From assembly GCA_963771025.1 (NCBI GenBank), contig CAVYRL010000003.1, positions 354,267 to 418,266 on the forward strand: a stretch of DNA of 64,000 nucleotides, in the 5' to 3' direction. Shown here piece after piece: positions 4,435 through 33,932 of this stretch (positions are counted from its first letter, which is position 1; each line of letters begins with the position of its first letter). A model generated the notes under the pieces. The model worked only from the letters and a program-made list of their open reading frames with translations, did no database searches and was not told the origin of the DNA. A program made the translations under genes and the position numbers. The stretch is from an uncultured Thermoleophilia bacterium (GTDB lineage Bacteria > Actinomycetota > Thermoleophilia > Miltoncostaeales > Miltoncostaeaceae).

Positions 4435-6570
4435 TCAGCCTCTGCGGTCGGGAGCCCGACGTGACGCCGATGACGCGCCGACCGTGACGACGTCCTCCGG
4501 CGCGTCGACCGCCGGGACGGCGCCGGTGGGATCGTCGCGCAGGATCGCGGTCAGGGTGGTCACCATGAGCGGATCGAATTGGGTACCGGAGCAGGCCGCG
4601 AGCTCGGCGAGCGCGACCTCCTGCGACACCGCGCTGTGGTACGCCCGGCGCCGCGAGGTCATGGCCTCGAAGGCGTCGCAGACGAACACGATGCGTGAGC
4701 CCAGGGGGATCTGCTCTCCCGACAGTCCGTCCGGATATCCCTGGCCGTCCCACCGCTCGTGGCTGGAGCGGACCAGAGGCGCGATCGGCTCGAGGGCCGG
4801 CGCGGCGCGCAGGATGCGCTCGCCGATCAGCGTATGGCGGTGGATGAAGTCCAGCTCGGCCGCGTCGAGGCTGTCGGGCTTGCCCAGGATCGCATCCGGG
4901 ACGGCGATCTTGCCGATGTCGTGGAGCAGCGCCGCGCGCCGCACCCGGCCTCGCTCGGGGTCGTCGAGCCCGAGGCGCCGGGCGACCCGATCGGCGAGGT
5001 CCGAGACGCTGCCGACGTGGTCGCTGAGCCCGGATGAGCGCTCGGCGAGCGCCCGCACCAGCACGTTGACGCTCTGGCTGCCCGCGGACTGGCGGCCCAG
5101 GGTCTTGCGGGCGTACATCCGGGCGTCGGCGACCAGCATCGCCGCCTCGGGCGAGCTCGCGTCCTCCGGGATGAGGGCCACGCCGTGCGCGCCCGAGATC
5201 TGGAATCCCTCCCCGCGCTGCGTGAGCGCGTCCCGGGCCGCCGCCACGGCCTCCTTGAGGGCGGCCGGAGCGAGGGACGCGAGCACGCAGAACTCGTCGC
5301 CGCCGAGGCGGTAGACCCGGCCTCCGGGTATCGCGGCAACCAGACGGGCGGAGATCCGCACCAGCAGGGCGTCACCGGCCGGGTGGCCGAAGCGATCGTT
5401 GTAGGCCTTGAAGCCGTTCAGGTCGAGCAGCATGAGGGCGAGCGGGCGGGTCCAGTCCGCCGCTGCGATGGCCTCCTCGAGGTCGCATTCAAGGCGGCGA
5501 CGGTTGAAGAGCCCGGTGAGGCCGTCGGTGTCGGCCTCGCGAATGAGCAGCTCGTGCACCTCCTCGCGCTCGCGATGGCGCAGGTTGGACTGGGCGAACA
5601 GCACGCCGACCAGCAACGCAACCGCCGCCGAGCCGCCGATCAGCAGTATCACCGGGAGGGCCCACAGGGCCTCGGGGTGGGGCGTCGAGACCCGCGCGGT
5701 CCACCCGCTGTCGCCGACCGGAGCCTCGGCGACCGCATTGAGCATGGGCCCGCTGCCCGAATCGAAGATCTGTGCGGCGGGGCTGACGATCTCGAGACGA
5801 CTGCCGGCGGGGAGCAGCGCCAGCGGGGATCGGACCAGATGGGAGATGTTGAAGAGGCCGCCGAGGTATCCCCGCAGGCCGGCGCGCCGAGCGAGGATCG
5901 ACGCGGGCGCCGGATCCGGGCCGTAGACGGCGGCGAGCACCGCGACCGCCTCCGGCCGTCGGTTCGCCCCGAGTTGCAGCGCCGAGGTCACCACCGGCCG
6001 TCCCCCGTCACGAGCCGACGCAAGGCTCGGCCGAAGGGGCGCACTGGTCGCGATGTCGATCCCGACGGACGCCTGCGCGATGTCGGTGCGGGGCGCGACG
6101 AGGCTCAGGGGGAAGTAGTCCGCCCGCGCCGGGGCGGGCTGGAACGCGCCGGATGGAAGCGCATCGAGGATCGGCCGCCCAGACGCGCCCTCGAAGGACG
6201 CGCGATCGGCTGCCGAAACGCGCGGAGCCCAGCTGACCGACTGCGTGCTCACGCTCTCGAACGCAACCGTGGCGAACCGCGTGAAGTCGGCGGAGTCCAC
6301 GCCCTGGGGCGACGCCGCGAAGAGCCCGCGCAAACCGTTCAGCGCCCCTTCGGCGGAGTCGAGCTCACCGCCGAGATCGTTCGCCGTGCTCCGGGCCCAC
6401 GCCTCGCGTTGATGGCGCTGATCCCCGCGGATGTTGTGGACGACGCCGGCGGCCGCGGCGAACCCCGTCGCCAGCAGCAGCAGGACGACGACGACCTGGA
6501 AGGGCCGAAGGCTGAGCGGGATGCTCAGCACTCTGCGGCGAATCGACCGGAGCATCGTGCCGAGCGGCAT
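4435..6570 (-). CDS. Membrane CHASE-GGDEF-HD-GYP c-di-GMP enzyme
   Basis: Two TM helices flank a CHASE-like region (WAPRV, DYFP, GIDI); D.LTGL.NRR, intact GGDEF, HDIGK and HHERWDG.GYP-type motifs. Confidence 0.9.
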   Translation of the reverse strand: MPLGTMLRSIRRRVLSIPLSLRPFQVVVVLLLLATGFAAAAGVVHNIRGDQRHQREAWARSTANDLGGELDSAEGALNGLRGLFAASPQGVDSADFTRFATVAFESVSTQSVSWAPRVSAADRASFEGASGRPILDALPSGAFQPAPARADYFPLSLVAPRTDIAQASVGIDIATSAPLRPSLASARDGGRPVVTSALQLGANRRPEAVAVLAAVYGPDPAPASILARRAGLRGYLGGLFNISHLVRSPLALLPAGSRLEIVSPAAQIFDSGSGPMLNAVAEAPVGDSGWTARVSTPHPEALWALPVILLIGGSAAVALLVGVLFAQSNLRHREREEVHELLIREADTDGLTGLFNRRRLECDLEEAIAAADWTRPLALMLLDLNGFKAYNDRFGHPAGDALLVRISARLVAAIPGGRVYRLGGDEFCVLASLAPAALKEAVAAARDALTQRGEGFQISGAHGVALIPEDASSPEAAMLVADARMYARKTLGRQSAGSQSVNVLVRALAERSSGLSDHVGSVSDLADRVARRLGLDDPERGRVRRAALLHDIGKIAVPDAILGKPDSLDAAELDFIHRHTLIGERILRAAPALEPIAPLVRSSHERWDGQGYPDGLSGEQIPLGSRIVFVCDAFEAMTSRRRAYHSAVSQEVALAELAACSGTQFDPLMVTTLTAILRDDPTGAVPAVDAPEDVVTVGASSASRRAPDRRG

Positions 6571-6692
6571 GCAGACGTCTCCTCAGCGGGACCCGAGACA
6601 CGGATCCGTCACCGCGACTGATTATCGAACGATGATCGTTCATATAATCGTCATCAGGAGGGCAGAACTGAGGCCCACGGCCCCGACGCGGA

Positions 6693-7157
6693 TCATTCGC
6701 CGGCGACGACACCCCCCATCTCATGGGTCCGGCGGTACCACTCCCAGGGCTGGCTGATGGCCGCGAGCCAATCGTCGAGTGTGCCTCCGGCGGGGATGAC
6801 GTTGACCGGCGCGCGGCCGGTCAGGTGTAGGCGAATTCGCGGCGCCTGGCCGATCGGAGACACCTCATCGGGGCTCGCGGGTCGACGCTCGAACCTCTCG
6901 AGCTCGGCAAACGGGAACGACCTGCGGCGGGCCGCCAGCAGGCGCTCGAGCGGATTCGGCTCGAACTCGAGACGGTCGGCGTACAGCCTCAGCAGGCCGC
7001 CCCGGGCGAGCCAGCCCGTGTTGATGCTCACCAGACCCCGCTTGCGCACCCCGTCCTCGGACCCGAGGAACTCCCCGTCGCGGAGGCCGGTCCAGATGCG
7101 GCTCCAGTTGGCGGGCTCGTCGTCGTCGGTGCCGTCCCAATCGGGCCAGCGTCCCAT
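6693..7157 (-). CDS. Hypothetical protein (possibly PH-like fold)
   Basis: ATG with GAGGAGG RBS; GG.L.L..DRL.FEP pattern typical of bacterial PH/GRAM-like domains. Confidence 0.55.
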   Translation of the reverse strand: MGRWPDWDGTDDDEPANWSRIWTGLRDGEFLGSEDGVRKRGLVSINTGWLARGGLLRLYADRLEFEPNPLERLLAARRRSFPFAELERFERRPASPDEVSPIGQAPRIRLHLTGRAPVNVIPAGGTLDDWLAAISQPWEWYRRTHEMGGVVAGE

Positions 7158-27664: not shown

Positions 27665-27820
27665 ATGACAACTCAGCCGCCGATTCCCGAGCCCTTCCCG
27701 GGGCCGCCCAACATCCCCGAACCCAGCCCTCCGACGATCCCGGAGCCCTACCCGCCACCGACGCCGCAGCCACCCTCCCCGGCGCCCGAGCCCGTACCTG
27801 CGCCCGACTTTCAGCGGTAG
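27665..27820 (+). CDS. 51-aa Pro-rich microprotein (IPEP repeats)
   Basis: Three IPEP repeats; GC3-biased codons. Confidence 0.45.
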   Translation: MTTQPPIPEPFPGPPNIPEPSPPTIPEPYPPPTPQPPSPAPEPVPAPDFQR

Positions 27821-28560
27821 TCCGGATTGGGGAAATCGAAACGGCATCCGGCATCCCAGAGGGAGCGCTGGTTGCCGTGGGCGGGGATGCCGCCGGCGTC
27901 CTTGAGCAGTCGCGCCATGTGCAGCAGGTTCCAGGTGAGGAACGTCGTGTTGCGATTGGTGAAGTCGTTCTCCGGCCCGCCCGAGCCGGGGTCGAGATAG
28001 CTGGGGCCGGGGCCCGCCTCGCCGAGCCACGCCGAGTCGGCCTGCGGCGGTATGACGTAGCCGAGGTGCTGCAGCGAGTAGAGGATGTTCATCGCGCAGT
28101 GCTTGGCGCCGTCCTCGTTACCGGTGATCAGGCAGCCGGCGACACGGCCGTAGAAGGCGTACTGGCCGTCGGCGTTGAGCAGGTGGCTGTCGCCGTAGAG
28201 GCGCTCGATGACGCGGGTGCAGACCGACGACTTCTCGCCGAGCCAGATGGGTGATGTGAGCACGAGGATGTCGGCCGCGAGCACCTTGGCCGCGACAGAG
28301 GGCCAATCGTCGCGCGGCCACCCGCGCTCGGTCATGTCCGGGTAGACGCCCGTGGCGATCTCGAGGTCCACGGCACGGATGGTCTCCACCTCCACCCCGT
28401 TGCGCTCCATGATCGCGACGGCGATGTCGGCCAGCCCCTGCGTGTGCGAGATCTCGGGTGAGCGCTTGAGCGTGCAGTTGATGAACAGCGCCCGGAGATC
28501 GGAGAAGTCCCATCGGGAGGTCTCGCACAGCTCCTCCTGCAATTCGTTCAGTCGCGTCAC
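27811..28560 (-). CDS. Flavodoxin-like / NADPH-dependent FMN reductase family protein
   Basis: NCTLKRSP..SHT, ADILVLTSPIWLG and ITGNEDGAKHC motifs. Confidence 0.88.
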   Translation of the reverse strand: MTRLNELQEELCETSRWDFSDLRALFINCTLKRSPEISHTQGLADIAVAIMERNGVEVETIRAVDLEIATGVYPDMTERGWPRDDWPSVAAKVLAADILVLTSPIWLGEKSSVCTRVIERLYGDSHLLNADGQYAFYGRVAGCLITGNEDGAKHCAMNILYSLQHLGYVIPPQADSAWLGEAGPGPSYLDPGSGGPENDFTNRNTTFLTWNLLHMARLLKDAGGIPAHGNQRSLWDAGCRFDFPNPDYR

Positions 28561-28702
28561 GGTTGCCCCCTCGTCTGACGTCGCCCGGCACGCACCGGTG
28601 CCACGGAGGTCCATCAGATCACCGGACCGCGCGCGGGCGCCACCGGCGCGAGTCGCAGAGCGCCCGAGGACGTCCTTCTGCGACCGAGCCCCGGCCGGGA
28701 GG

Positions 28703-29431
28703 TCACACGATGCTGACCGGCACCCCGGGCCGTATGCGTTTGGCGATCCACGCGATGCCGCCGTCGCCGAGTCGCACGCAGCCGTGCGAGGCGGCCGTGC
28801 CGAGCCGGCCGCCGATGTTGCGGACGCCGTGGATGGCGACCTGCCCAGGACCTCCATCGAACTCCTGGAACACCGGGGAGCGCGCGCTGAGGGCGAGGGC
28901 GAACGGAGCGCCGGGGCGTCCGGCGGAGAGCCGCACGTTCTCCTCGACGAAGTACTCGCCGCGCGGCGTCGGCGTGGACGGAGCGCCCACGATCGCCCTC
29001 AGGTCGCGCACTCGCAGCCCCTTCCGATAGACCCTCACGTGGCGGCTGCGCAGGTCGATCACGATCCGCCACGGCGTGGCGGAGATGCGGGTCGATGTGG
29101 TGCGGATCCAACCGGTCGGCGGCGGTTTGGCCCCACGCAGGGCACGGCCGGGAAGGCGCACCCGCAGCCAGTGGCGCGCCCGCAGGTCGGTGCTGTGATC
29201 GATGACCGGCAGCAGCGTGCGGCCGCCCGTGATCGGCCTCCGCGGGGCGACGCGGGCCACGACCCGGGAGGTCGTGCTCGGCCGGGCATGGGCCACGTGG
29301 ACGGTGAGAACCGTCGCGATCTCCTGATCCACGCCGGCGCCCGCGGCCTGCGCTCCGGCGGGCAGGGCCACGGCGCAGGCGGCGACCACCGCCGCCCGCG
29401 CAAGCGTCGAGCGCAGCGACACGGCCGTCAA
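28703..29431 (-). CDS. Secreted L,D-transpeptidase (YkuD family)
   Basis: IVIDLRSRHV, IVGAPSTPTPRGEY and AIHG...SHGCVRL catalytic motifs. TTG start overlaps the upstream stop (TTGA). Confidence 0.9.
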   Translation of the reverse strand: MTAVSLRSTLARAAVVAACAVALPAGAQAAGAGVDQEIATVLTVHVAHARPSTTSRVVARVAPRRPITGGRTLLPVIDHSTDLRARHWLRVRLPGRALRGAKPPPTGWIRTTSTRISATPWRIVIDLRSRHVRVYRKGLRVRDLRAIVGAPSTPTPRGEYFVEENVRLSAGRPGAPFALALSARSPVFQEFDGGPGQVAIHGVRNIGGRLGTAASHGCVRLGDGGIAWIAKRIRPGVPVSIV

Positions 29432-30636
29432 CCCGTGAAGCCGACGGTGGTACGCGGCGTCAGGAACCGGACCCGGCGCGACGGAACCCGCGCCCGCCCC
29501 TCGGCACATGCGCGGAATCGCATTCGGAGCGTGGAGGCGGGGGTCGCATCCGTGTAGAGGACGCGCGCCCTGACGATGTGGATGCCCCGCCTGGACCTGA
29601 CAACCGCACGGAACGGCGCCGTGCGACGGTTCGCGATCGTGAGGCCGTCGAGCGAGAAGACGACCCGCCGGATGTTGACCCCGGTCACGCGGACCGGGAA
29701 CGTGTCCTGCACGCAGCGGCTGACTCCGAAGCGCGACACCGAGTTGCCGATCGAGCGCGGGATCGTCGAGAAGACGCTCGTCCCGTTGCTCGCCGTCGGA
29801 CCGATGCCACCTCCGCCGCCCGGCGGGGTGCCGCCCGGCGCGGTGCCGCCCGGCGCGGTGCCGCCCGGCGTGGTGCCGCCCGGCGTGCTCGTCGCGCAGT
29901 TGGCGGCGGTGATCCGGTCGTTGATGAGGGTGACCGCGCCGTTGCGCGCCAGCGCCCGCCCCTGGATGGTCACGCCGTTCTTCACCGAGATCGACTGCAG
30001 GGCGAGGATGCTGCCCACGAAGGTGGTGGTGGTGCCGAGCGTCGCGGAGCTGCCGATCTGCCAGAAGACGTTGCACGGCTGAGCGCCGTTGACCATTCTC
30101 ACGCGGCTCGCCGACGCGGTCGTCAGCGTCGAACCGGCCTGGAACACGAAGACGGCGTCCGGGTTGCCCTGGGCGTCGAGGGTCAGCGCACCGGTCAGCC
30201 CGACCGACGAGGCGGACTTGTAGACGCCCGAGGTGAGGGTCAGGCCGCCGAGGTCGCCGGCGATGCTCACGGGCGGGGTCCGCCCGGCGGCGTCGTTGTA
30301 CGCGGTCGTGAGGTCCGACTGGGCCTGGAGGGCCGGTCCGTCAGCGGCGTGGATCGTGCCGTTGACGGTACCCGGCGGGAAGCCGGTGATGGCGGCCCCG
30401 GGGGTCAGTCCCAGGTTGCCGTTGATGACCGAGGGGCCGGTGTTGGTGATGGTGGAACCGGCCAGCACGGCGTAGGCGTCGGCGGTGCCGAGCCCAACGG
30501 GCGCCTGGGCGGCGAAGGCGCTTGTCGCGAGCAGCGAGGAGGCTGCGCAGGCGACGCCCACGAGGCTGATGCGACGCGCGACGCCGCCTCCGGCCGCTCG
30601 CGAGGAGCCTGGCGTGGTGCGGGTCGTGCGACGCAT
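29428..30636 (-). CDS. Secreted ice-binding (DUF3494) protein with TPGG linker and basic C-terminal domain ending GFTG
   Basis: LGTADAYAVLAGSTITNTG, LTSGVY, VFVFQAGSTL, NVFWQIGSSATLG and QGRALAR motifs. Confidence 0.92.
   Translation of the reverse strand: MRRTTRTTPGSSRAAGGGVARRISLVGVACAASSLLATSAFAAQAPVGLGTADAYAVLAGSTITNTGPSVINGNLGLTPGAAITGFPPGTVNGTIHAADGPALQAQSDLTTAYNDAAGRTPPVSIAGDLGGLTLTSGVYKSASSVGLTGALTLDAQGNPDAVFVFQAGSTLTTASASRVRMVNGAQPCNVFWQIGSSATLGTTTTFVGSILALQSISVKNGVTIQGRALARNGAVTLINDRITAANCATSTPGGTTPGGTAPGGTAPGGTPPGGGGGIGPTASNGTSVFSTIPRSIGNSVSRFGVSRCVQDTFPVRVTGVNIRRVVFSLDGLTIANRRTAPFRAVVRSRRGIHIVRARVLYTDATPASTLRMRFRACAEGRARVPSRRVRFLTPRTTVGFTG
29816..29887. repeat. About five copies of a 15-bp tandem repeat encoding (T/A)xPGG linker
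   Basis: CCGCCCGGCG(C/G/T)GGTG units. Confidence 0.85.
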
Positions 30637-30809
30637 GGAGGGTCCTTCTCAGATGGATGCGGGAAGAAGTGCCGCATCGTCACGATGCCCCCACCATCGG
30701 CAAATACTGAACCGTTCATTAAAGTATAGGTCCGGGGACACCTCGCGGCCTGAGCTGGCGCACCGCCAGCGGGGGAGGTGGACGGCGACCCGGACGTGCC
30801 GCACCATGA

Positions 30810-30853
30810 ACGACGAAAGCCCGCGCGAAGGCGGGCTTTCGGGTGCGCCAGAC
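30810..30853 (-). repeat. Remnant of tRNA-Arg 3' end plus terminator hairpin (old att-like copy)
   Basis: TGCGCCAGAC (30844-30853) is identical to 38967-38976. ACGACGAAAGCCC (30810-30822) is identical to 38931-38943. Hairpin GAAAGCCCGC/GCGGGCTTTC. Confidence 0.6.
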
Positions 30854-30896
30854 GCCTGCCATCGGCCATGCCGCGCAGGTCCGTGATCAGATCACC

Positions 30897-31367
30897 CTAG
30901 AAGCCCCAGCGCTTCGTCCGAACGCTCGAGGGGTCGCCGCCTCGGCTCACGGCGGCCTGCAGCTCGGCCTCGGCGATCTCCGGTGTGGGTGCCGGCGCGG
31001 TCTGGCGGGCGTCGAGGACGTCCCGGTAGCTCTCGAGCCCGTAGTACTCCTGCACGTCGGACTCATCGCCCAGGGTCAGGTCGTCGTCCTCGGCGAAGGT
31101 CGGCGCCAGGGAGAGCTTCTCGCGCGTGTAGGGCAGGAGGATCTCCTTGTCGGGATCGGTGCCGCGCGCGGTGACGTTGACGAGGGGGATGACGTGACGC
31201 CTCGAACCGAACCATCCGCTCTCCACGGCGAGGTACCTCACCTCACCGTCGGCCGGATCGACGTAGAGCCCGGCCACGGTCCCGATCTTCTCGTCGTTGG
31301 TGTCGTACACCGGCCGAGCGAGCAGATCCTCGGTCGCAGGCAGGTTCGCGGTTCCCCGGACAGTCAT
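30897..31367 (-). CDS. PRC-barrel domain protein
   Basis: VYDTNDEKIGTV..LYVD...GEVRYLAV..GWFG motif. Confidence 0.88.
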   Translation of the reverse strand: MTVRGTANLPATEDLLARPVYDTNDEKIGTVAGLYVDPADGEVRYLAVESGWFGSRRHVIPLVNVTARGTDPDKEILLPYTREKLSLAPTFAEDDDLTLGDESDVQEYYGLESYRDVLDARQTAPAPTPEIAEAELQAAVSRGGDPSSVRTKRWGF

Positions 31368-31588
31368 CGTCACTCCCTTCGTCGCTGAACTCCATTGGTA
31401 CCCGCGCAGGGCGCGTTCCAACCGAGGAGGGGAAGTGGCATGACCACCACCGGAGGCGGCCCGCGGAGGCGCGTGGGTCACGACGGCGCAAATCCGTGTG
31501 TCCCATCGCAGAGCGGCTGCTGCAACCGACATGGCGCGACGGGCGCCCCGGGCCAGGCCGGACCACCCAGCTGTGAGATGTTCCCGGG

Positions 31589-32161
31589 ATGACGGACGAC
31601 CTCCGACGCCTGCCGGAGGGCCTCCCGGCCCCCGAGGACGACGGCGCCGCCGCCCATCTTCGGGGTGCCTCCGTTCCCGAGATCGCGCTCAGTTCCACCA
31701 TCGGGCAGACGCTGACGATCGCCGCGGCGGCGCGCCCCGCGCTGGTGTTCGCCTTCCCCTGGGCCGGGCGTCCGGGCGAGGCTCTTCCCGAGGCGGGCTG
31801 GGACGCGATACCGGGCGCTCGGGGCTGCACCGCCGAGGCCTGCGCTTTCCGGGACGTCGACGCCGACCTGCGAGCCCTCGGCCTCGACGTGCTCGGAGTC
31901 TCCGTGCAGAGCCCCGCGGCGCTGGCCGAGGTGGCGACGCGCCTCGGCCTGCGTTACCCGCTGCTGTCGGACGAGGGCCTGGAGCTCGCGCGGGCGATCG
32001 GCCTGCCGACCTTCACGGCCGGCGGCCGCACGCTGCTGCGGCGTCTCACAATGCTCGTGCGCGACGGCCGTGTGGAGCGCGTCTGGTACCCGGTGTTCCC
32101 GCCCGACCGGCATCCGGAGCGGGTGCTGGCGGCTCTGACCGGGCCGGGTTCGCGCCTCTGA
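31589..32161 (+). CDS. Peroxiredoxin (Bcp/AhpC-TSA family)
   Basis: GARGCTAEACAFRD, YPLLSD and LRRLTML...G motifs. Confidence 0.9.
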   Translation: MTDDLRRLPEGLPAPEDDGAAAHLRGASVPEIALSSTIGQTLTIAAAARPALVFAFPWAGRPGEALPEAGWDAIPGARGCTAEACAFRDVDADLRALGLDVLGVSVQSPAALAEVATRLGLRYPLLSDEGLELARAIGLPTFTAGGRTLLRRLTMLVRDGRVERVWYPVFPPDRHPERVLAALTGPGSRL

Positions 32162-32474: not shown

Positions 32475-33932
32475 ATGAAGAAGATGACTGTGCGCAGGGT
32501 CGGGGCACTGGCCGGCGCCACCGGCGTAGCCGCCGCGGCCGCCGTGGGTGCGGTGGCGGCGGCCGGCACGATCACCGGGCCGAGCAGCTCCCAAACGCCC
32601 TATCTGACCCCGAGCGAGCCGGGTGTCGTCACGAAGTCGATCCTCACGGTCGGCGACTCGGTCAACGACACGCCCGGCGGCGCGAAGTACCGCATGGTGG
32701 GCATCCCGGACGGGCTCGGTGCCTTCGACAACCACGACGGCACTTTCACGGTGTTGATGAACCAGGAGCTCGACGGTGCCGGCGTCGGGGTCGAGCGCGC
32801 GCACGGCGCCAAGGGGGCCTTCGTCTCGAAGTGGACGATCGACAAGAAGACGCTGCGGGTGCGCAAGGGCGAGGACCTGATCCAGCGCGTCGCTCTCTGG
32901 AACCCGGCCGCCAACTCCTACGACGCGCCCACCAGCGGCGTCGTCTTCACGCGCTTCTGCTCGGCGGACCTGCCCGCGCGCAGCGCCTTCTACGACGACG
33001 GCAGGGGCTTTGGCGGCCGGCTCTTCCTGAACGGGGAGGAGTCGGGCACCGAGGGCCGCGCCTTCGCCCACGGTCTCGACGGCACGAGCTGGGAGCTCGC
33101 CTCGCTCGGAAAGGCCGCCTGGGAGAATCAGGTCGCCCAGCCGGACTCGGGCAAGAACACGGTCGTCGTCGGTCTCGACGATGGCCCGGGTGGCCAGGTC
33201 TACGTGTACGTCGGCGCCAAGCGGCGCTCCGGCTCGCCCGTCGAGAAGGCCGGCCTGGTCGGAGGCCGGCTCTACGGGGTCAAGATCGACGGCCGCCCCC
33301 TCGAGGACGCCGCCACGGGCATCCCCTCGGGTTCGCGCTTCAGCCTCGAGCCCCTGGGCGACGTCTCCGCCAAGAGCGGCGCGCAGCTCAATACGGACAG
33401 CATCGCCGCGGCGGTGACCACCTTCCAGCGACCCGAGGATGGCGCCTGGGACCCCGGGGACAACCGCAGGTTCTACTTCAACACGACGGCCAGCTTCACG
33501 GGCAACAGCCGCTTGTGGCGACTCAACTTCTCCGACCCGGAGAAGCCCGCCAAGGGGGGCACCATCGACATGCTGCTCGACGGCAGCGAGGGCCAGAAGA
33601 TGCTCGACAACCTGACCGTCAGCGACCATGGCCAGGTCATCCTCCAGGAGGACCCCGGCAACAACCCGTACGTCGCGAAGGTCTACCGCTACTCGGTGAA
33701 GCGGGACACCCTCACCGAGGTCGCCCGCCACGATGAGGCGCGCTTCGCGCCGGGGGCGCCGCTGGGCGTCGACGAAGAGTCCTCCGCGGTCATCCCGGTG
33801 GACGAGATCCTCGGCAAGGGCTGGTACCTGCTCACCCAGCAGGCGCACAGCGACCCCGGCGTCACCGACCCCGAGCTGGTCGAGGGGGGCCAACTGCTCG
33901 CCATGCGCGTGCCGCCGGGGCGCGGCCGATAG
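32475..33932 (+). CDS. Secreted PhoX/DUF839-like phosphatase
   Basis: Signal peptide with RR; PDGLGA, NQEL, RFCSA, WEN, RPEDG, DNLTV and QEDPG motifs. Confidence 0.75.
   Translation: MKKMTVRRVGALAGATGVAAAAAVGAVAAAGTITGPSSSQTPYLTPSEPGVVTKSILTVGDSVNDTPGGAKYRMVGIPDGLGAFDNHDGTFTVLMNQELDGAGVGVERAHGAKGAFVSKWTIDKKTLRVRKGEDLIQRVALWNPAANSYDAPTSGVVFTRFCSADLPARSAFYDDGRGFGGRLFLNGEESGTEGRAFAHGLDGTSWELASLGKAAWENQVAQPDSGKNTVVVGLDDGPGGQVYVYVGAKRRSGSPVEKAGLVGGRLYGVKIDGRPLEDAATGIPSGSRFSLEPLGDVSAKSGAQLNTDSIAAAVTTFQRPEDGAWDPGDNRRFYFNTTASFTGNSRLWRLNFSDPEKPAKGGTIDMLLDGSEGQKMLDNLTVSDHGQVILQEDPGNNPYVAKVYRYSVKRDTLTEVARHDEARFAPGAPLGVDEESSAVIPVDEILGKGWYLLTQQAHSDPGVTDPELVEGGQLLAMRVPPGRGR

Follow-up and report, generated by a model that had tools for sequence, protein, structure and literature searches.

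The LPXTG signal with sortase, the PEP-CTERM signal with exosortase and the Lpp box with L,D-transpeptidases (LDTs) have each shown the way in which an entire lineage constructs its cell surface. PEP-CTERM and the C-terminal domain of type IX secretion, which goes with PorU, are sorting tags of diderms that often end DUF3494 proteins, and their cargo is attached to lipopolysaccharide or to the membrane. In Alphaproteobacteria and Coxiella, LDTs tether outer-membrane beta-barrel proteins to meso-diaminopimelate (mDAP) via an N-terminal region that serves as acceptor, and in the Lpp box the side-chain amine of the terminal Lys takes this part. To our knowledge all LDT-anchored proteins are acceptors, via Lys or an N-terminal amine, and we know of no LDT that takes a protein as acyl donor. 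In the LDT mechanism the donor carbonyl acylates the enzyme while a single terminal D-Ala leaves, and LDTs take synthetic peptides as donors (PMC13235563). For LDTs to attach a reporter protein, a short and bare C-terminal Lpp box is enough (PMC12274547), and the sortase signal is defined among other things by its hydrophobic segment and its charged tail (PMC4617865, PMC4155245).

In the window, that is the whole 64-kb stretch of DNA analysed, the gene of an ice-binding-like DUF3494 protein (IBP) is followed by that of a predicted secreted LDT (Table 1). The IBP ends with ...FLTPRTTVGFTG*, and as claimed in the earlier note this Phe-Thr-Gly (FTG) end is bare, with the stop codon directly after ...VGFTG and neither a hydrophobic stretch nor a charged tail. 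The protein thus stops right after the Gly and the tripartite sortase signal is absent; the description of the tail as LPxTG-like is correct for the xTG part but not for the rest. No other ORF in the window has such a terminus. The TGA stop of the IBP gene is located at 29428–29430 and a TTG in the LDT frame at 29429–29431 (GGTTGA), so that the stop/start overlap noted before is present, and likewise the intact HGC site, which corresponds to H201, SHGC218 and R220. This TTG is the inferred start of the LDT, and the choice is backed by the junctions in homologues, where stop and start overlap in 36 of 77 cases, 31 by 4 nt (mostly GGATGA) and five by 1 nt. By reading of the sequence, the ATG of the IBP gene is preceded by a Shine-Dalgarno-like AAGGA 8 nt on its 5' side.

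Table 1. Features of the IBP-LDT locus, with nucleotide positions in the window.
Feature	Position	Strand	Basis
Ice-binding-like (DUF3494) protein gene (IBP), 402 aa, stop codon included	29428..30636	(-)	ORF list, ATG start; Pfam Ice_binding
IBP signal-peptide-like N-terminus, aa 1-42, ...LLATSAFA/AQAP	30511..30636	(-)	Reading of the translation
DUF3494 / Ice_binding domain, aa 57-243	29908..30468	(-)	Pfam PF11999, 236 bits, full profile 1-208
TPGG-repeat Pro/Gly/Thr linker, aa 249-277	29806..29892	(-)	Sequence
Basic Ig-like C-terminal domain, about aa 303-377, flanked by conserved C308 and C377	29506..29730	(-)	Profile, homologues
Basic Pro/Arg tail, aa 378-402, ending Phe-Thr-Gly (29431-29439)	29431..29505	(-)	Alignments, tail statistics
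GGTTGA junction: Gly codon, IBP TGA stop, overlapping LDT TTG start	29428..29433	(-)	Sequence
L,D-transpeptidase (LDT) gene, 242 aa, predicted secreted, stop codon included	28703..29431	(-)	Pfam YkuD
LDT signal-peptide-like N-terminus, aa 1-29, ...LPAGAQA/AG	29345..29431	(-)	Sequence; disordered in AF2 model
LDT beta-rich N-terminal domain, SH3b-like, conserved, aa 36-119	29075..29326	(-)	High pLDDT, all-beta
YkuD catalytic domain, aa 122-241, H201, S215-H-G-C218, R220; SHGCVR at 28772-28789	28709..29068	(-)	Pfam, conserved columns
Family-specific loop VFQEFDGGPGQ, aa 187-197, just before the catalytic His	28841..28873	(-)	Highly conserved columns

The signal peptide, DUF3494 domain, TPGG linker and basic C-terminal domain reported earlier are all found in the 402-aa protein, the signal part by reading of the sequence. 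The Pfam Ice_binding/DUF3494 profile (PF11999) is matched over its full length at aa 57–243 with an E-value of 4.5e-70, and the protein is by this match a member of the DUF3494 family, with ice binding as a putative function. It is not an equivalog of the NCBIfam family IBP_CFB, since the score of 119 bits is far under the cutoff of 400 bits. The domain is followed by a linker (aa 249–277) with the sequence TSTPGGTTPGGTAPGGTAPGGTPPGGGGG, and the last 125 residues contain 23 Arg and no Lys, with a pI of about 12. None of the Pfam and NCBIfam models matches the tail of the window protein, and a single-sequence AF2 model of the whole IBP, with a pLDDT of 36, is unusable; the fold of the C-terminal domain is therefore assigned by homology only. 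A word-based search with this domain returned only two close relatives, hence an exhaustive profile search was used, which gave 174 proteins. C308 and C377 are nearly invariant among the homologues and the Ig-like domain probably carries a disulfide. Pfam Big_7 (PF17957) matches 14 of 58 homologous FTG proteins, the best with an E-value of 3.8e-9, and does not match the window copy at E < 0.01.

That FTG ends might not be conserved, or not be linked to LDT genes, was named in the earlier note among the outcomes that would refute its proposal, and they are both conserved and linked. In the terminal tripeptide of 53 unique tails the Phe is present in 49, the Thr in 52 and the Gly in all 53. Among the 3796 ORFs with a length of 100 aa or more in the 743 kb of related loci, FTG is the commonest terminal tripeptide; it ends 68 of them, and all but 6 of the 68 are followed directly by an LDT gene. 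Synonymous variation is seen in the Thr and Gly codons, indicating that selection acts on the protein. The FTG end is kept also where the Ig-like domain is swapped for a basic low-complexity linker, as in ...ARPALPHRRGxFTG; among these proteins the Ig-like domain is dispensable and the FTG end alone is constant. In this, and in the processing enzyme, the FTG proteins differ from those with type IX C-terminal domains or PEP-CTERM. Common to them is that a beta-sandwich domain of about 80–100 aa, or a short motif, closes many unrelated surface proteins at the very C-terminus, in the case of FTG as a putative lineage-specific sorting tag.

Among genome loci collected with the C-terminal domain an LDT gene is found immediately downstream in 13 of 13 evaluable cases, from Thermoleophilaceae, Solirubrobacteraceae and Conexibacter, and the same cassette is present in the complete genome of Baekduia soli. 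This set was made with a narrowed alignment and is biased towards DUF3494 orthologues, and an independent scan was therefore seeded with the LDT, using the VFQEFDGGPGQ loop as pattern, which gave 80 metagenome loci, 70 of them with enough upstream DNA to be judged. The gene immediately upstream on the same strand ends with (F/L)(T/A)G-stop in 59 of the 70, from -161 to +9 nt relative to the estimated LDT start, and DUF3494 is part of that ORF in 48 of the 59; an upstream FTG gene is missing at about 10 of the 70 LDTs. The contexts of P0123 (L017), P0192 (L102) and P0231 (L103) were too short to judge. Two apparent fusions of the C-terminal domain with an LDT, P0176 and P0170, were rejected as Rosetta-stone evidence, as their tails are out of frame and they look like frameshifted gene calls. 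Proteins of 65–130 aa that seem to consist of the C-terminal domain alone look like fragments of split gene calls: the L001 and L002 assemblies are frameshifted, and in Baekduia soli DUF3494 and the C-terminal domain are in different frames. As far as these sequences tell, the IBP and LDT genes form a translationally coupled pair, and this two-gene cassette is conserved throughout the class Thermoleophilia. Its recurrence in an entire class of soil bacteria makes it look like a so far undescribed means by which proteins are fixed to the wall. What is observed directly in these loci is the FTG motif, the conservation of this motif and the linkage of its genes to those of LDTs, and we give about even chances to the reading that the FTG carboxyl end (FTG-COOH) would be a wall-sorting signal read by dedicated LDTs, with recognition, covalent attachment and acyl-donor chemistry inferred.

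The passenger proteins are of many kinds. Ice_binding is found in 24 of the 58 FTG proteins, and the others contain DUF7507, DUF11/CLIPPER, CARDB, SdrD_B, pAdhesive_15 or Peptidase_M73; FTG also terminates VWA/CLIPPER/SpaA adhesins, a lipase-like protein and families without known function. Such passenger types carry LPXTG in other Gram-positive bacteria, and Thermoleophilia are reported to be Gram-positive. Four FTG proteins without DUF3494 also have an LDT gene nearby, 15 nt downstream in L101, upstream and divergently transcribed in L100, and upstream on the same strand in L105 and L106. The LDTs of L100 and L101 are divergent paralogues, with 75–90 bits as compared to about 300. No LDT is in view for three clustered adhesins in L019 and for the FTG protein of L104. 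Part of the linkage must be inherited synteny, since the loci come from related organisms, and FTG could in principle signal to another machinery (secretion, processing or a tail-specific protease) with the LDT merely an old neighbour of DUF3494. The linked cases are indeed mostly orthologous DUF3494-LDT pairs from one bacterial class, and some FTG proteins lack a nearby LDT, but the linkage recurs with unrelated passengers, divergent LDT paralogues and three gene orientations, there is no second or stray LDT-like gene in the 787 kb examined, which come from the window and 106 loci (107 sources), and no third gene is conserved beside the cassette in the contexts inspected, which leaves this explanation with only a very slight chance.

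The arrangement resembles the sortase system in that a Cys/His transpeptidase is encoded beside its presumed substrates, with Thr-Gly at the presumed scissile position, the same kinds of passengers (SpaA, DUF11/CLIPPER, SdrD_B and VWA adhesins) and enzyme paralogues that pair with different substrates. It differs in that the enzyme has the YkuD fold and that FTG is the very end of the protein, and a single residue would be released; no LPXTG-type tail or tripartite signal was found in the 743 kb of related loci. As with class C sortases, the LDT might join the FTG proteins to each other into a pilus- or sheath-like assembly, from the Thr carbonyl to an amine of the next subunit. FTG ends SpaA-, CLIPPER- and VWA-type proteins, which elsewhere assemble into pili or fibres, L019 has a cluster of three FTG adhesins, and collagen-like proteins with AFTG adjoin LDT genes. 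We consider such polymerisation highly unlikely, since no conserved pilin-type Lys was identified and polymerisation is not known for the commonest partner, one DUF3494 protein per cassette. In the collagen-like proteins, encoded upstream of the LDTs in L050 and L081, the AFTG is internal and located just after the signal peptide, and it is unexplained by a strictly carboxy-terminal mechanism.

The LDT matches Pfam YkuD (PF03734) at aa 122–241 with 68.1 bits (cutoff 23.4), and so do all 65 members of the alignment, which consists of the window LDT and 64 homologues. The columns of H201, S215-H-G-C218 and R220 show no or almost no variation in the 65 sequences, and the same is true of the VFQEFDGGPGQ loop, apart from its first F (F/L), its D (D/E) and the E within QEF. 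An AF2 model of the enzyme has a mean pLDDT of 82, with an N-terminal domain that is all-beta with high confidence and a low pLDDT in the loop. With this predicted model as query the best Foldseek match is YkuD of B. subtilis (1y7m, rmsd 1.6 over 124 columns), and LDTs of M. tuberculosis are also among the top matches. The enzyme thus looks active, from the conserved catalytic residues and the YkuD fold of the model. SH3_3 (PF08239) matches five of the 65 family members, the best with an E-value of 3.1e-5, and the window copy is below the threshold. There are more than 4900 homologues of the LDT, and where named these are from Solirubrobacteraceae or Thermoleophilia, the class that the earlier note had correctly guessed.

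The SH3b-like domain, together with the canonical catalytic site, also allows for a non-covalent arrangement, in which the basic domain or linker would bind anionic wall polymers, FTG would dock to the LDT, in its SH3b-like domain or its active-site pocket, and the enzyme would make ordinary 3-3 cross-links, remodelling the wall locally at the site of insertion. The tails are strongly cationic, with a median net charge of +9 over the last 40 residues, and Pro-rich, and 3-3 cross-linking is the default function of LDTs (PMC13235563). Electrostatic binding has however no need of an invariant and exactly terminal Phe-Thr-Gly, and a housekeeping cross-linker is not expected to occur as separate paralogues beside different FTG families, nor to be translationally coupled to them, and we regard this arrangement as unlikely.

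FTG lacks an amine and the tail of the window protein lacks Lys, and anchoring by an LDT would therefore need a chemistry unlike every known LDT anchoring reaction. The Lpp box of Lpp and OutB (E. coli LdtA–C; Dickeya dadantii, PMC12274547) is similar in that YkuD enzymes attach a protein covalently to peptidoglycan, as is proposed for FTG, and also in its signal, a bare C-terminal motif of few residues, which in the case of the Lpp box can be transplanted to a reporter. Lpp and OutB are however from diderm Proteobacteria, with general-purpose LDTs that are not encoded beside the substrate, whereas in Thermoleophilia the LDT paralogues are adjacent and apparently dedicated, and the FTG terminus is a Gly. 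If the LDT worked as with Lpp, it would be acylated by a wall tetrapeptide and pass the stem on to the protein, with a Lys of the basic region or the mature N-terminus providing the amine and FTG used for recognition only. This is the sole mode of protein attachment by LDTs that is experimentally established, the Lpp box being both necessary and sufficient in Dickeya OutB (PMC12274547), and 56 of 59 tails have some Lys within the last 40 residues. Lys is however missing from the last 125 residues of the window protein and from the last 15 residues in 41 of 60 tails, no Lys position is conserved among the tails compared, and the invariant Phe, Thr and Gly carry no amine; the idea of a Lys acceptor is thus unsupported by the tail counts, and we find the Lpp-like mode improbable. 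The tethering of beta-barrel proteins is comparable to the proposed role of the FTG cassette in that LDTs link envelope proteins that are not lipoproteins, but it involves neither a terminal FTG nor gene adjacency.

For FTG-COOH as a sorting signal we tentatively propose, at somewhat less than even confidence, a sortase-independent anchoring in which paralogous SH3b-YkuD LDTs would use the protein as acyl donor, cleave it between Thr and Gly and ligate diverse surface proteins (DUF3494 proteins, SpaA/CLIPPER adhesins, enzymes and perhaps collagen-like fibres) to mDAP. The tail would mimic the end of the peptidoglycan tetrapeptide stem, with the Gly standing in for the D-Ala leaving group, as the only proteinogenic residue that should fit the D-Ala pocket. 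Cys218 would probably attack the Thr-Gly bond, with release of the terminal Gly alone, the protein would then be held on the LDT as a thioester, and the side-chain amine of wall mDAP would resolve the thioester, leaving the DUF3494 domain covalently fixed to peptidoglycan. Such a donor chemistry would explain that the motif is exactly the last three residues, that the last is always Gly and that a membrane-spanning segment is unneeded. In literature text searches, which have incomplete coverage, we found no description of DUF3494 together with an LDT, of an FTG terminal motif, or of a protein as acyl donor for LDTs.

If this holds, a bare three-residue C-terminal signal with dedicated LDTs would be a new sorting signal for an abundant and little-studied class of soil Actinomycetota, and the wall-bound surface proteome of these bacteria could be predicted from sequence by the FTG motif. 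The DUF3494 "ice-binding" proteins would here be wall-fixed structures and not freely secreted antifreeze proteins. The donor chemistry, if right, would constitute a new class of LDT reaction, extending the repertoire from peptidoglycan stems to protein C-termini, and an enzyme that reads a three-residue terminal tag could become a ligation tool comparable to sortase.

A scan of positions 28300–31100 for promoters and terminators gave no match, and such a scan is uninformative in DNA with 72% GC. The neighbouring genes in the window, for an FMN reductase, a PRC-barrel protein, a redoxin and a PhoX-like protein, have no relation to the cassette, and the related loci inspected have other neighbours. 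The sequencing runs that were found are all of soil and sediment metagenome DNA.

Both cassette genes, encoding the ice-binding protein (IBP) and the L,D-transpeptidase (LDT), are found on the minus strand of 28703-30636. The IBP has a signal-peptide-like N-terminus, and the earlier note was right in describing a secreted DUF3494 protein with a TPGG spacer and a basic C-terminal region, and in placing its stop over the TTG start of the LDT. The C-terminal 100 aa or so are extremely basic, with 23 Arg, no Lys and a pI of about 12, and in the window's protein this region is matched by no Pfam or NCBIfam model. The last residues are ...FLTPRTTVGFTG with the stop directly after, and the sequence has no hydrophobic or charged segment following the terminal Gly, so the bare end was correctly read; the name LPxTG-like given to this tail holds for the xTG part and fails for the rest of the motif. 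The LDT also has a signal-peptide-like N-terminus, and the HGC site reported for it is indeed intact, with the catalytic H201 and the SHGCVR motif (C218, R220). An AF2 model with 65 homologues as input has a mean pLDDT of 82 and B. subtilis YkuD as its best structural match (rmsd 1.6 Å), and the solved structure nearest by sequence, E. faecium Ldtfm, is yet distant (E 7e-5). Sequence, motif and predicted fold all mark the LDT as a bona fide member of the YkuD family. The four neighbouring genes are unrelated to the IBP-LDT pair, and the related loci inspected show other neighbours.

Features of the cassette and its neighbours (window positions, or residues of the protein)
Feature	Position	Strand	Remarks
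FMN reductase	27811-28857	-	
LDT gene	28703-29431	-	242 aa; TTG start overlaps the IBP TGA stop, GGTTGA
Beta-rich domain	LDT aa 36-119		conserved
YkuD domain	LDT aa 122-241		68 bits against a cutoff of 23.4 (Pfam)
IBP gene	29428-30636	-	402 aa; ATG start preceded by an AAGGA Shine-Dalgarno-like sequence
DUF3494/Ice_binding domain	IBP aa 57-243		Pfam, E 4.5e-70
TSTPGGTTPGG... linker	IBP aa 249-277		sequence
PRC-barrel protein	30897-31532	-	
Redoxin/AhpC-like protein	31589-32161	+	
PhoX-like protein	32475-33932	+	secreted

A word-based search with the IBP C-terminal region gave two close relatives, both ending in GFTG and both followed by the same LDT. An exhaustive profile search of this region in 1.8 billion representative proteins gave 174 matches, and among the best 150 of these an exact Phe-Thr-Gly (FTG) end is present in 76 and an FTG-like tripeptide end in 87, the remainder being mostly generic Ig-like domains of other organisms or broken gene calls. 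The common C-terminal module consists of an Ig-like domain between two nearly invariant Cys, a short Pro/Arg-rich stretch and then FTG; Pfam Big_7 matches 14 of the 58 members of the FTG-ended set, and NCBIfam gave no convincing match to 32 aligned tails. In 53 unique tails the third-last residue is F in 49, the next is T in 52 and the last is G in all 53, and synonymous variation in the Thr and Gly codons indicates that selection acts on the protein. One homologue (locus L008:5126-5770(+)) ends in ...NPGFTGKR, i.e. with two residues after FTG, reflecting either a genuine exception or an error of the assembly. Loci L001 and L002 (ENA contigs, 468 kb and 145 kb) contain many split genes, the IBP being spread over three frames and a sulfatase broken into three pieces. 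Such splitting is typical of long reads assembled without correction, and it gives rise to many of the short C-terminal-domain proteins that stand in the protein databases as 'stand-alone' entries.

The linkage to the LDT was followed in two independent scans, one seeded with the C-terminal domain in species-representative genomes and one seeded with the LDT only in metagenomes. The former gave 14 loci from Thermoleophilaceae, Solirubrobacteraceae and Conexibacter, and an LDT of the same family is located immediately downstream in 13 of the 13 that extend far enough. The complete genome of a Baekduia soli isolate has the same IBP-LDT arrangement with a 4-nt overlap. In this genome (CP042430, L018:9078-10234) the DUF3494 segment (308 aa in the annotation) and the Ig-like/FTG segment (77 aa, FSW04_10360) lie in different frames and are called as two genes, because of either a real frameshift or pseudogene or a mistake in sequencing the repetitive linker. 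The LDT-seeded scan gave 80 loci with 47-66% identity to the window's LDT, and in 59 of the 70 judged, those with at least 150 nt upstream, a same-strand ORF ending in [F/L][T/A]G-stop adjoins the LDT start. A DUF3494 domain is present in 48 of these 59 ORFs by our count, the others being mostly cut by contig ends. The genes overlap by 4 nt in 31 of 77 junctions (mostly GGATGA) and by 1 nt in 5, which supports the TTG start in the window and translational coupling. FTG is the commonest terminal tripeptide in the 743 kb of fetched DNA (68 of 3796 ORFs of at least 100 aa), and all but six of the 68 directly precede an LDT; no additional LDT-like gene was found anywhere in 787 kb, so chance adjacency is negligible. 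The comparison proposed in the earlier note, of whether FTG ends are conserved and linked to these enzymes, gave a positive result, broader than expected.

Two results point to the tail rather than the DUF3494 domain as the likely partner of the LDT. Many LDT-linked DUF3494 proteins have a basic low-complexity linker in place of the Ig-like domain and still end in ...ARPALPHRRGxFTG or similar, and the FTG end with an Ig-like domain occurs on unrelated passengers (DUF7507, DUF11/CLIPPER, CARDB, SdrD_B, pAdhesive_15, Peptidase_M73). Large VWA/CLIPPER/SpaA adhesins are also FTG-ended, as is a family of unassigned function with a conserved FSCRAS N-terminus. Among the non-DUF3494 cases with a readable context, a YkuD gene is located 15 nt downstream of an 852-aa CLIPPER adhesin (L101), directly upstream of an FSCRAS-family gene and divergently transcribed (L100), and directly upstream of a non-DUF3494 FTG gene on the same strand (L105, L106). 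The LDTs of L100 and L101 have the same architecture and are divergent paralogues, scoring 75-90 bits against about 300. In locus L013 a secreted lipase-like alpha/beta hydrolase (5421-6770(+), GHSQGG motif) without an Ig-like domain ends in ...SPRRPRFTG, and its gene directly precedes a DUF3494-FTG gene with its LDT, placing two FTG proteins before one LDT. Inherited synteny alone is the weakest alternative and most improbable, since the linkage recurs with unrelated passengers, different LDT paralogues and different gene orientations. Very large adhesin-like proteins of the VWA/CLIPPER/SpaA type are clustered in locus L019 (251-4288, 9833-10411 and 10693-15294(+)), three of them with an Ig-like domain and then ...VVKPRFTG at the end; no LDT is present within this 20-kb locus, and none is in view near the FTG gene of L104. 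Several enzyme paralogues, each beside a different substrate family, together with unlinked substrates, resemble the sortase classes and their substrates.

A recurrent FTG family (P0123, P0130, P0155, P0177, P0189, P0196, P0197, P0202, P0214, P0216, P0224 and P0236) has a conserved N-terminus ...GSFSCRASAARV... after the signal peptide and no Pfam match except Big_7 in the C-terminal domain (checked individually for P0123 only), and at least two members adjoin a YkuD gene (L100, L105). The loop VFQEFDGGPGQ (window 28841-28873(-)), which closely precedes the catalytic His and has low confidence in the LDT model, is almost invariant in the DUF3494-linked LDT subfamily and is replaced by DWPGGGVVG in paralogues adjoining other FTG proteins; it may be a substrate-specificity lid.

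LDTs are Cys enzymes acylated by the residue-3 carbonyl of the tetrapeptide stem with release of a single terminal D-Ala, and the thioester is then resolved by the side-chain amine of meso-diaminopimelate (mDAP) (PMC13235563). For Lpp and OutB a bare motif at the C-terminus, the Lpp box, is enough to bring about attachment (PMC12274547). In way of working the present system resembles both sortase/LPXTG and Lpp box/LDT, but an FTG substrate lacks the hydrophobic segment and charged tail that define the sortase signal, and it lacks the terminal Lys of the Lpp box. The Lpp box ends in Lys, and the LDT-anchored proteins known to us are acceptors via an amine. Attachment in this manner, through a Lys or the N-terminus, is quite unlikely here: an FTG tail offers no amine, and Lys is absent from the tail of the window's protein and from the last 15 residues of 41 of 60 tails, and is conserved at no position. 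An acceptor model therefore fits poorly. LDTs need the free carboxylate of the one residue released and exchange D-Ala4 for Gly, so that Gly is a plausible leaving group; to our knowledge Gly is the sole proteinogenic residue able to occupy the D-Ala pocket. The invariant features, with the motif exactly terminal, Gly always last and Thr before it, would fit a donor model. The motif and the linkage of its genes to those of LDTs are what is observed, and from them we infer such a mechanism, as the most likely one, in all its steps: the terminal Gly would occupy the D-Ala pocket, and the protein would be carried on Cys218 and then passed to mDAP of the wall. Substrate and enzyme would be held at the wall by the strongly cationic tail, whose last 40 aa have a median net charge of +9, and by the LDT's SH3b-like domain. 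Non-covalent docking, with the LDT merely cross-linking the wall locally, is possible if unlikely, and LDT-driven polymerisation of FTG proteins is very unlikely. The proposal of the earlier note, that the LDT recognises the C-terminal FTG and anchors the IBP on the wall, is partly supported, the covalent anchoring and its mechanism being putative. Both the anchoring of proteins by LDTs and transpeptidases dedicated to a sorting signal are already known. Text searches turned up no account of an LDT paired with DUF3494, of a terminal FTG motif or of LDTs that take a protein as acyl donor; the motif, the lineage, the dedicated LDT paralogues and the implied chemistry appear new.

An FTG gene is absent upstream in about ten LDT-seeded loci, and most of these form small branches of their own in the LDT tree. 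In three of the ten or so the gene directly before the LDT (L050:539-1705(+), L081:1-1245(+) and L089:1-1029(+)) encodes a collagen-like protein with long Gly-X-Thr/Ala repeats and a globular C-terminal domain, which we take to be BclA-like, ending in ...NAS.xIEKL. The N-terminus of L089 is lost at the contig end, and in the two that can be read, L050 and L081, an internal C..PLPPC.P.AFTG follows right after the signal peptide. The motif here accompanies the LDT again, though away from the C-terminus, which speaks against a mechanism confined strictly to the carboxy-terminus, unless the collagen-like proteins are processed first. In one small LDT clade (L080:1231-1623, L091:2898-3590(+)) the upstream gene is small and lipoprotein-like, without an FTG end and with the conserved sequence ...TEKVERAIERS...CPSGV...TFSCTA...
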